Positions 7,070 to 8,242 of a DNA stretch of 64,000 nt are shown in pieces. Origin of the DNA: Vezdaea acicularis (lineage: Eukaryota); contig JAPEUI010000037.1 in assembly GCA_026025075.1 (NCBI GenBank), positions 1 to 64,000 on the forward strand, written 5' to 3'. Each line of letters begins with the position of its first letter. Within the stretch, counting starts at the first letter, position 1. The notes beneath the pieces are model-generated. The model saw nothing but the letters and a program-made list of their open reading frames with translations. It made no database searches and was not told where the DNA came from. Position numbers and translations under genes: made by a program.

Positions 7070-7504
7070 CGTGCCGACTAGAACACAACTTGCCTGTCTT
7101 CGTGGCAATGAAGGGGGGCTTTTAAAATGGAAGAGAGATGCTCGGAGATTTTGCTGCCTGCTATGACCTCAAAGGTGGCTAATTCACCTTACCTGTGTGC
7201 CTTCGTTCACGAGACATAAGGCTCTCGCCGAGCGGCTACGGAATATCTTTCGCCCTAGCGCAGCCGTTCCTTTTCGATCGCTTGGAATTTTGTTTCTGGT
7301 TCATCTTCCCTCCCCACCGGAAGCTTGACGAATTTTATGCAATGAGATCGAGCAGGAATTGGTGACGCTCAACCAAGCTCCCTAGTACTATGCTTGCAGA
7401 GCGGAGCAAAGAGCCTTCAACAAGAAACTTAACGGGTATGTATACATCTCTTTCACTATTCACGAGAGAAAGCTCCATTTCTCCCTTCGTACCCTGAATT
7501 ACGA

Positions 7505-7600
7505 TTACTATGACGAACTTCGTGTCGCCCCTATCATACTACAAGAGCTCTGCTCCAATGGTGACCAACCTGTCCTAGCCAAACGGACCATCTGAGTTAT
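7505..7600 (+). ncRNA. snR67: Box C/D snoRNA, snR67/U31-like
   Basis: C box ATGACGA 7510-7516, C' ATGGTGA 7558-7564, D box CTGA 7592-7595. Guide GTGTCGCCCC (7522-7531) pairs with LSU GGGGCGGCAC, the yeast Gm2619 region, in the register I recall for yeast snR67. The D' box (CATA) is degenerate. Confidence 0.72.
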
Positions 7601-7789
7601 ATATCTTGATCACTTTCCAACCAAGATTTCGGTAACAGACGTTGAGCTGACAAGATGCAACATTAGGTATCATTACAAAATCCCTTGATAGATTCGCCCA
7701 ACTCAAAGACCGACGGGAAGTCTAACGAATGGCAGAAGATGTGAGTTATTTTCCTACACATAACGTGCTGTGATGGGGTAGGCTTCAAG

Positions 7790-7868
7790 AAAACATGATG
7801 AGCAACATAAAAACTATCAAATGCCGACTATCAATGACGAGCAAAACATGGTTCGATTACCTGAACTA
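7790..7868 (+). ncRNA. Box C/D snoRNA with two rRNA-complementary guides (family unassigned)
   Basis: C ATGATGA 7795-7801, D' CCGA 7824-7827, C' ATGACGA 7834-7840, D CTGA 7861-7864. D guide ATGGTTCGATTA is complementary to LSU UAAUCGAACCAU. D' guide ACTATCAAAT is complementary to SSU AUUUGAUAGU. Confidence 0.8.
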
Positions 7869-8030
7869 CTAGTCCATCTATTGAAAAAGGTTTCGATAAT
7901 AAAGCATTGATCCCTCCACAGTGCTGACCTTTACTTATTAGTTCTAGGCACGTACTCCGCCTTCAATGTCAAATTTGAAGCCAACTACGGTATGTTTACT
8001 TGTAAGCCACACCATCGCTTTGCGAATCAG

Positions 8031-8128
8031 CAGCTCGTGATTAAACCAAACATTCCATGCTAAAACCGAAGTCTTAAAACGGCTTTTGCGGATACAAAGA
8101 ATGCCTTTTCATCTTTCAACTGAAGCTT
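8031..8128 (+). ncRNA. snR53: Box C/D snoRNA, snR53-like with a second LSU guide
   Basis: C GTGATTA 8037-8043. D' guide ATTCCATGCTAA (8052-8063) is complementary to SSU UUAGCAUGGAAU, the yeast Am796 site; D' CCGA 8066-8069. D guide CTTTTCATCTTTC (8105-8117) is complementary to LSU GAAAGAUGAAAAG; D CTGA 8120-8123. AGCT/AGCT terminal stem. Confidence 0.78.
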
Positions 8129-8242
8129 TCACATTGATCTCATGCATCGTCCATATTCAATTCCTAGTGTACACCATGACTGACAAAGCGCAGATGTTCA
8201 CCATAGGGACGCACAATGTCTGCCGAGACATATTCACTCGCT

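Follow-up and report, generated by a model that had tools for sequence, protein, structure and literature searches.

An intronic snR67–snR53-type cluster of box C/D snoRNAs with a third member in a probable non-coding host gene of Vezdaea acicularis

The plus-strand gap at positions 7380–8330 of a 64,000-nucleotide (nt) stretch of Vezdaea acicularis DNA (assembly GCA_026025075.1, contig JAPEUI010000037.1, positions 1 to 64,000; hereafter the window) very probably contains a UHG-like, non-coding and spliced host gene that carries one box C/D small nucleolar RNA (snoRNA) guiding rRNA methylation in each of three introns. An earlier note, made from the letters of the sequence, had proposed a hidden gene of this kind in a gap free of open reading frames (ORFs) between YKT6 and a short-chain dehydrogenase (SDR) gene, with an additional member lying between homologues of snR67 and snR53. 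The present analysis bore this out. The three introns were recognized by their splice signals, the exon junctions proposed before (7435/7667, 7740/7942 and 7989/8194) were exactly those that the signals give, and none of four gap ORFs of 60–110 amino acids matched a Pfam family at E ≤ 1. The sequence anatomy, the complementarity between guides and targets, the conservation of the families and the splice signals were all seen directly. The elements, all on the + strand, are as follows.

7380..7435, +: exon 1, ending at the GTATGT 5′ splice site (7436); the start at 7380 is a guess of the earlier note
7436..7666, +: intron 1, 231 nt (GTATGT ... GCTGAC ... TAG)
7504..7598, +: snoRNA 1, snR67/U31 type (snoStrip family CD_26), recognized by model R1 and guide duplexes
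7510–7516, 7535–7538, 7558–7564 and 7592–7595, +: snoRNA 1 boxes C (ATGACGA), D′ (CATA), C′ (ATGGTGA) and D (CTGA)
7522–7534, +: snoRNA 1 D′ guide
7572–7588, +: snoRNA 1 hairpin, recognized by covariation, with GTCC (7572–7575), loop TAGCCAAAC (7576–7584) and GGAC (7585–7588)
7667..7740, +: exon 2, 74 nt, between the TAG 3′ splice site and the GTGAGT 5′ splice site
7741..7941, +: intron 2, 201 nt (GTGAGT ... GCTGAC ... TAG)
7793..7866, +: snoRNA 2, double guide, recognized by model R2
7795–7801, 7824–7827, 7834–7840 and 7861–7864, +: snoRNA 2 boxes C (ATGATGA), D′ (CCGA), C′ (ATGACGA) and D (CTGA)
7813–7823 and 7848–7859, +: snoRNA 2 D′ guide and D guide
7942..7989, +: exon 3, 48 nt, bounded by splice signals
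7990..8193, +: intron 3, 204 nt (GTATGT ... ACTGAC at 8179–8184 ... CAG)
8032..8127, +: snoRNA 3, snR53/Neurospora crassa CD11 type (snoStrip family CD_11), recognized by model R3 and two guides
8037–8043, 8066–8069, 8086–8092 and 8120–8123, +: snoRNA 3 boxes C (GTGATTA), D′ (CCGA), C′ (TTGCGGA) and D (CTGA)
8052–8063 and 8105–8117, +: snoRNA 3 D′ guide and D guide
8194..8330, +: last exon, heading towards the 3′ end of the dehydrogenase gene; its 3′ end is approximate

Relatives were collected by one metagenome scan for both snoRNA 3 guides spaced 25–55 nt apart, which yielded 103 loci, many of them too short to reach the position of snoRNA 1 or snoRNA 2. Models R1, R2 and R3, built without the window from 44, 29 and 58 relatives of snoRNA 1, 2 and 3, respectively, matched the window at 7504–7598 (73.9 bits, E = 2e-19), 7793–7866 (60.8 bits, E = 7.1e-18) and 8032–8127 (62.5 bits, E = 1.4e-18). 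Part of the R3 score is built in, since both snoRNA 3 guides had served to select the sequences behind this model. These were the only three places matched in the 64 kb, the next best match having an E-value of 0.44. That match, by R1 at 46413–46505 (+ strand, 9.5 bits), is most likely due to chance. When positions 6300–9300 were compared with the 103 loci by blastn, three islands stood out in the gap (7493/7505–7596, 7793–7867 and 8034–8126), while the exons and intron flanks were similar to none of the loci; the sole further match was the dehydrogenase gene, in two loci. Upstream elements on which no selection had been made recurred as well: a 10-mer of the snoRNA 2 D guide was found in 42 of the 103 loci at −165 to −226, and a snoRNA 1 10-mer, likewise in 42 of 103, at −223 to −843. 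Where 700 nt or more of upstream DNA was present (54 loci), a snoRNA 1 relative was always found, in 37 cases with the exact 10-mer and in 17 with variants of it. An snR67-type snoRNA directly upstream of the snR53 homologue, the order of the yeast cluster, was therefore found in the window and in all 54.

The gene itself has the organization of a UHG-like host, with several introns, one snoRNA in each, and exons without a conserved ORF; the joined exons contain stop codons in all three frames, in agreement with the non-coding host proposed before. Among 71 distinct snoRNA 3 relatives, a 5′ splice site was found upstream in 52 on the same strand versus 23 on the opposite strand, a branch point with 3′ splice site downstream in 54 versus 5, and both signals in 42 versus 1. 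In the 54 relatives with downstream signals, the distance from the end of box D to the branch A had a median of 54 nt (interquartile range 52–56), and that to the 3′ splice site a median of 68 nt (interquartile range 65–71, range 60–81); the corresponding distances to the 3′ splice site in introns 1, 2 and 3 of the window were 71, 77 and 70 nt. Splicing-coupled processing, known for intronic box C/D snoRNAs from vertebrate work, would lead one to expect such a constant spacing from box D. For N. crassa, characteristic distances were noted and spliced host transcripts were detected by reverse transcription PCR (RT-PCR), as described in the text of PMC2780460 available to us. We infer splicing and expression in V. 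acicularis mainly from the splice signals and from the tight distance between box D and branch point in the relatives. A TAG at 8204–8206, 13 nt past the CAG at 8191–8193, is a possible alternative 3′ splice site of intron 3; alternative 3′ splice sites have been seen in N. crassa host genes of this kind (PMC2780460, same text).

Each of the three introns contains, as had been claimed, a C box and a CTGA D box. The snoRNAs have lengths of about 74–96 nt (95, 74 and 96), their boxes align with the conserved boxes of the 44, 29 and 58 relatives, and each shows the general box C/D layout with at least one guide of 10 nt or more that ends beside box D or D′ and places a target opposite its fifth base (+5). 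The guides were compared with 7483 bases of ribosomal DNA (rDNA). An ITS1F primer pattern retrieved 13 contaminant rDNA contigs from bacterial assemblies, and an ITS4 primer pattern gave no match in viral contigs. The set comprised contig L016 (G001:C105; the 3′ part of 18S, the internal transcribed spacers and 25S to about position 2570), two 5′ ends of 18S, one fungal-looking (L021) and one plant-like (L022), and the 3′ part of a 25S (L026). For L016 near positions 805–876, subtracting 2513 gave the right base at five of five sites (G805, A807, A817, G867 and A876), and U898 and G908 fitted the numbering after a 1-nt deletion; five of these seven sites are yeast methylation sites in the table of PMC8583080, as far as that table was available to us. 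For L026, an offset of 2357 placed the expected base at all 13 yeast methylation sites compared, versus at most 8 for 12 other offsets, and position 262 of L026 therefore corresponds to G2619.

Perfect complements to fungal rDNA measured 10 nt in snoRNA 1, 12 nt in snoRNA 2, and 12 and 13 nt in snoRNA 3, which is the 10–13 nt that had been reported. Such lengths are not rare in the background. A perfect rDNA complement of at least 12 nt occurred in 96 of 2842 90-nt windows (about 3%) covering both strands of the 64 kb, and the observed length was equalled by 742, 66 and 19 of 2000 shuffles of snoRNA 1, 2 and 3, respectively. Since long matches are this frequent in background windows and shuffles, complementarity to rDNA is by itself weak evidence; what raises the guides above chance is their position beside the D and D′ boxes together with their conservation in relatives.

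The assignment of snoRNA 3 to the snR53 type, as the earlier note had it, and to the N. crassa homologue CD11 follows from its two guides. The D′ guide pairs at 12 of 12 positions with 18S TTAGCATGGAAT (guide positions 3–14, followed by AA and CCGA) and puts the A of UUAGC at +5; this is 18S A796 (N. crassa A793), the yeast number resting on the match to the description of CD11. The D guide pairs at 13 of 13 positions with 25S GAAAGATGAAAAG in all six rDNA loci that cover the site (guide positions 3–15, followed by AA and CTGA). Its target, position 366 of the L016 25S, is the Pezizomycotina 25S site (N. crassa A356 or A359). Both guides end 2 nt from a D-type box. In the relatives, the C, D′, C′ and D boxes, none of which had been selected for, lie in register, and the two bases beside box D vary freely. 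Table 1 of PMC2780460 lists 18S-Am793, 26S-Am356 and U6 as targets of CD11, and the portion of Canzler et al. (2018) available to us confirms the CD11 targets across Pezizomycotina. Rfam snoU6-53 matched relatives of snoRNA 3 below threshold in 3 of 12 loci (28.4, 25.8 and 23 bits; gathering score 36), and snoR53Y, which shares a clan with snR53, matched a single relative at 21.2 bits (gathering score 43). U6 is probably a further target of the D′ guide.

The middle snoRNA is, by the evidence of its sequence, real and conserved. The D guide of snoRNA 2 pairs at 12 of 12 positions with 25S TAATCGAACCAT (four of five rDNA loci; guide positions 2–13) and places the equivalent of yeast U825 at +5. 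The D′ guide pairs with 18S UAUUUGAUGGU and places the third U of UUUGAU at +5; among the three 18S sequences compared (basidiomycete-like, plant-like and protist-like), this U has the number 123 in the plant-like as well as in the fungal one. Most relatives read GUACUAUCAAAU(A) in this guide and the window reads AAAACUAUCAAAUG. Two 13-mer matches, sought as an ascomycete 18S 5′ end, turned out not to be rRNA. In the table of PMC8583080, within the part available, Um123 of Arabidopsis 18S is a mapped site with human Um121 as its equivalent and nothing entered for yeast, and no methylation is given at the equivalent of U825 for plant, human or yeast. No snoRNA with the targets of snoRNA 2 appears in N. 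crassa Table 1 (PMC2780460), in the A. fumigatus table, in the seen part of the T. rubrum table or in the main text of Canzler et al. (2018). Nor did any Rfam family match snoRNA 2, the A. fumigatus snoRNA entries such as Afu_294 included. Rfam holds many A. fumigatus snoRNA families beyond Afu_294.

Relatives of snoRNA 2 were found by R2 in 54 of the 100 loci searched. The middle snoRNA is missing from about 10 of 47 distinct loci, in which snoRNA 1 and snoRNA 3 are 151–323 nt apart, and is present in the remainder (one further row was set aside as an extraction artefact); this distribution fits an extra member between the two, as suggested before. Some middle snoRNAs keep the 18S D′ guide together with another D guide (L082 and L031), or differ in both guides (the set named here being L082, L031, L042 and L053). 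The second guide of the snoRNA 2 family seems to turn over quickly, as far as the sequences of these relatives indicate.

For snoRNA 1, the best duplex of the D′ guide in all rDNA compared was with 25S GGGGCGGCAC (−22.6 kcal/mol; 10 pairs, guide positions 4–13), which places position 262 of L026, and hence 25S G2619 (human G4166), at +5. G2619 lies in the P loop and corresponds to E. coli G2251. The guide core that is invariant across the relatives, (G/U)UGUCGCCCC, pairs with this same 25S segment, and the D′ box of the relatives reads CTTA, CAGA or CATA. This target, together with the position upstream of snoRNA 3, upholds the assignment to snR67. The table of PMC3511168, in the part available, lists the snR67/U31 target under an older number, Gm2616, with human Gm4166, and Canzler et al. 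(2018) place N. crassa CD26 in the snR67 family with a corrected D′ box, according to the text at hand. A D guide for 25S U2724 was not found in snoRNA 1: its D-side region forms a hairpin and showed no such complement against the rDNA compared. The text at hand of Canzler et al. (2018) confines the U2724 target to Saccharomycotina, and a U2724 guide is therefore not family-defining outside yeasts. A search of Rfam with one relative (L122) gave 24.9 bits to an unrelated fly family and no snR67.

The place of the second guide is taken by a 4-bp hairpin with the loop UAGCCAAAC, 3 nt before box D. It was counted in an alignment of 62 matches (48 distinct sequences) fitted by the model. The hairpin cells were paired in 95.0%, versus 72.9% in shuffles (reached by 0 of 500 shuffles), and 30 cells were changed on both sides, versus a shuffled mean of 4.4, in an alignment that was itself fitted to the structure and so favours the hairpin. 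Compensatory changes occurred at all four pairs, with slid controls at 18–48%. A loose stem search hardly separated the sequences from shuffles (mean stem of 3.95 bp versus 3.70 bp); a stricter arm-swap test gave a moderate signal, own arms pairing in 33 of 40 cases versus 298 of 934 for swapped arms. The loop sequence GCCAAAC is complementary to GUUUGGC, which lies one base 5′ of the G2619 duplex, and this predicted pairing beside G2619 looks like "extra base-pairing". The D-side region was rejected as an ordinary methylation guide: its rRNA-complementary part lies 8–18 nt from box D, and positions 4–7 are in the hairpin stem. In the window, snoRNA 1 also carries a short insert, treated by the model alignment as extra bases (alignments A2 and A5).

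Several observations weigh against the reading of snoRNA 1 as a G2619 guide, and they lead to a different candidate. Its D′ box, CATA, is without GA; the G2619 duplex includes one G–U pair and leaves the UAU beside box D′ (positions 1–3) unpaired; and bases 7525–7534 form a perfect 10-nt match, at guide positions 1–10, with 25S 807–816, which would place G811 at +5. The operative D′ target in this lineage might then be G811, instead of or besides G2619, as a target switch or a dual target enabled by the GGGGCG core that the two sites have in common. This duplex consists of ten Watson–Crick pairs out of ten and abuts the D′ box, and the UAU that completes it is the TAT found between core and D′ box in 33 of the 48 distinct relatives. 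Further, a UUUGG lies 5 nt upstream of the 807–816 site in L016, so that the hairpin loop could assist there too. Canzler et al. (2018), in the text available to us, report that the G2619 interaction of CD_26 is unpredictable in Eurotiomycetes, Dothideomycetes and Leotiomycetes, and that 25S-1898 (yeast G908) replaces it, an altered D′ target in these three Pezizomycotina classes. The target that they name is, however, G908 and not G811. When G908 was considered as the D′ target of snoRNA 1, its region of L016 was outside the six best duplexes, and the published interaction was not reproduced.

The comparison of the relatives speaks for G2619. At the G2619 site, the UG of the invariant core meets a CA and pairs with it; at 807–816, the opposing bases are AA. 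The three bases that finish the 807–816 duplex vary among relatives (AAT, CAT, AGT, AGG, TAA, TAG and AGA besides TAT), and the AGG and AGT variants lengthen the G2619 duplex, whereas UAU, as in the window, completes the 10-mer with 807–816. The latter duplex is also weaker (−19.2 versus −22.6 kcal/mol), and the table of PMC8583080, in the part available, has no methylation between the equivalents of A817 and A876 in Arabidopsis, human and yeast. We therefore regard G811 as a rather unlikely operative target; G2619 is the predicted conserved target of the snoRNA 1 family, and G811 would also be possible for the UAU group.

Other alternatives concern the gene as a whole. In S. cerevisiae, snR67–snR53 is one of five polycistronic clusters (so described in the source text at hand), and the three snoRNAs could likewise be cut from an unspliced precursor by an RNase III enzyme, the splice-like signals being unused. 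It is very hard to reconcile this with the complete splice signals (5′ splice site, branch point and 3′ splice site) that enclose each of the three snoRNAs separately, with their recurrence in the relatives (42 of 71 versus 1 of 71 on the opposite strand), or with a distance from box D to the branch point that is kept within a few bases and would be difficult to explain without splicing. Comparable N. crassa clusters were moreover shown to be spliced (PMC2780460, text at hand), and we consider an unspliced precursor highly unlikely. Even less probable is a host that encodes a small protein, with the snoRNAs as passengers in its introns. The joined exons do contain short ORFs, and protein-coding hosts are common for intronic snoRNAs elsewhere; against this stand the stop codons in all three frames, the four gap ORFs without Pfam match and the exons without similarity in the 103 loci.

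The remaining alternative is that the box motifs and complementarities arose by chance and have no function, for which one could cite the 3% background of long rDNA complements and the results with Rfam. At gathering score, Rfam gave no match in the 64 kb; at E ≤ 10, the only match in 7200–8400 was a chance one to ceN47 of 12.6 bits, and the curated models of snR67 (RF01177), snR53 (RF00338) and SNORD31 do not detect the window. The Rfam check suggested in the earlier note, across these and all other families, thus found nothing. The same search on 20 related loci again yielded no match at gathering score. Rfam is equally blind to clear relatives, and its failure is therefore not counted as evidence against the snoRNAs. 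Other points that weigh against the proposed host gene and its guides are that the C boxes of snoRNA 1 (ATGACGA) and snoRNA 3 (GTGATTA) are one base off RUGAUGA; that the relatives are metagenome contigs, not independent samples, all chosen by the two snoRNA 3 guides; that the rDNA came from contaminant contigs of other organisms and not from the genome of the window; and that most relatives have a stronger snoRNA 2 D′ guide than the window, where it forms 11 pairs, two of them G–U, with the basidiomycete-like 18S. Family models built without the window nevertheless found these sites and no others, with E-values between 2e-19 and 1e-18, and conservation is restricted to the three snoRNAs, which makes a chance origin extremely improbable.

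A non-coding host with three intronic guides would work as follows. The gene would be transcribed from the + strand, presumably by RNA polymerase II, and spliced; by analogy with known intronic snoRNAs, each intron would be debranched and then trimmed by exonucleases up to the small nucleolar ribonucleoprotein, setting free a single box C/D snoRNA, with stable small RNAs expected to accumulate and the methylations to follow. The D′ guide of snoRNA 1 would direct 2′-O-methylation of 25S G2619, its GCCAAAC loop pairing with GUUUGGC directly 5′ of the target. snoRNA 2 would direct modification of the 18S U equivalent to Arabidopsis Um123 and human Um121 by its D′ guide and of 25S U825 by its D guide, and snoRNA 3 that of 18S A796, and probably of U6, by its D′ guide and of the 25S site (N. 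crassa A356) by its D guide.

A more specific scenario is possible, and we put it forward tentatively, as one that may well prove wrong. The middle snoRNA would represent an undescribed Pezizomycotina family inserted into the ancient snR67–snR53 unit; it would guide the Um123/Um121 uridine of 18S, which is not methylated in S. cerevisiae, and in part of the lineage would have gained a second guide, aimed at a fungus-specific site (25S U825). In the same scenario, the Pezizomycotina snR67 would have swapped its second guide for the covarying hairpin, with the GCCAAAC loop clamping the rRNA beside G2619, and would thereby keep the methylation where predictions say that it was lost. If G2619 is indeed the target, the published inference that its guide was lost in three Pezizomycotina classes would be corrected. 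An apparently empty intergenic gap can, in any case, be annotated as a gene yielding three guides for rRNA modification, of a kind that Rfam-based annotation misses entirely. The predicted sites for this filamentous fungus are 25S G2619 and/or G811, 25S U825, the 25S equivalent of N. crassa A356, 18S U123 and 18S A796. The tight spacing between box D and branch point in more than 50 relatives also offers a natural data set on splicing-coupled snoRNA processing in fungi.

The gap is flanked by two minus-strand genes. On the left lies a gene for a YKT6-like protein (Longin and Synaptobrevin domains), and the orientation of the host gene is, as orientation alone, compatible with a divergent arrangement with it. 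On the right lies a two-exon short-chain dehydrogenase gene with its stop near 8332, convergent with the host gene. A dehydrogenase-like stretch was also seen 3′ of the cluster in two related loci (window 8500–8673 with L050 951–1115 and L069 784–957, about 70% identity), and the linkage therefore predates the species of the window. As a side result of the rDNA search, 13 assemblies filed as bacterial or archaeal (L001–L013 and L016–L027) were found to carry contigs with a fungal ITS1F site, some also with plant-like (L022) or protist-like (L017) 18S; all of these are eukaryotic rDNA contaminants in prokaryote records. The L016 18S probably carries one or more insertions, for example group I introns, because about 1400 nt separate its A796-site motif from the ITS1F site. 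The same distance in yeast is about 950 nt.

For the proposed accessory pairing of snoRNA 1 there is a precedent: van Nues et al. (2011, PMC3116282) describe extra base-pairing by single-guide snoRNAs through their second guide region. The likeness is that the guide region left unused holds a conserved element with complementarity to rRNA beside a methylation site, which does not adjoin box D as a methylation guide would; the difference is that the element of snoRNA 1 would lie in a hairpin loop closed by four covarying base pairs, and that snR67 is absent from the yeast snoRNA list of that paper, as far as the list was available. For snoRNA 2, the nearest counterparts are the guides of human 18S Um121, which we take to be SNORD4 (mgh18S-121), and of Arabidopsis 18S Um123, listed as At1gCDbox51.1 in the source available. 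The D′ guide of snoRNA 2 puts the homologous 18S uridine at +5, a likeness of target, and differs from these guides in being accompanied by a second one, for 25S U825.

In S. cerevisiae, snR67 is followed by snR53 in the cluster (10.1101/352906, in the part at hand); snR67 (RF01177) forms an Rfam clan with human U31/SNORD31 (RF00089), and snR53 (RF00338) one with plant snoR53Y. The V. acicularis cluster shares the order and the D′ targets 25S G2619 and 18S A796. In contrast to the unspliced yeast dicistron, its snoRNAs lie in separate introns with a third member between them, snoRNA 1 has a hairpin instead of the U2724 guide, and snoRNA 3 has an extra 25S guide. Closer still are the N. crassa box C/D clusters that Liu et al. 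(2009, PMC2780460) established by RT-PCR in the introns of non-coding UHG-like hosts; CD26 and CD11 each lie in an intron on chromosome I. These clusters likewise hold a single snoRNA in each intron, with canonical splice signals, and their host contains short ORFs only; CD11 has the rRNA targets of snoRNA 3 (18S A793 and 26S A356), and CD26 belongs, like snoRNA 1, to the snR67 family in the account of Canzler et al. (2018). The difference is that none of the snoRNAs in Table 1 shares its targets with snoRNA 2. The V. acicularis cluster belongs to this known kind, and its middle snoRNA and the snoRNA 1 hairpin with its accessory pairing may be new.

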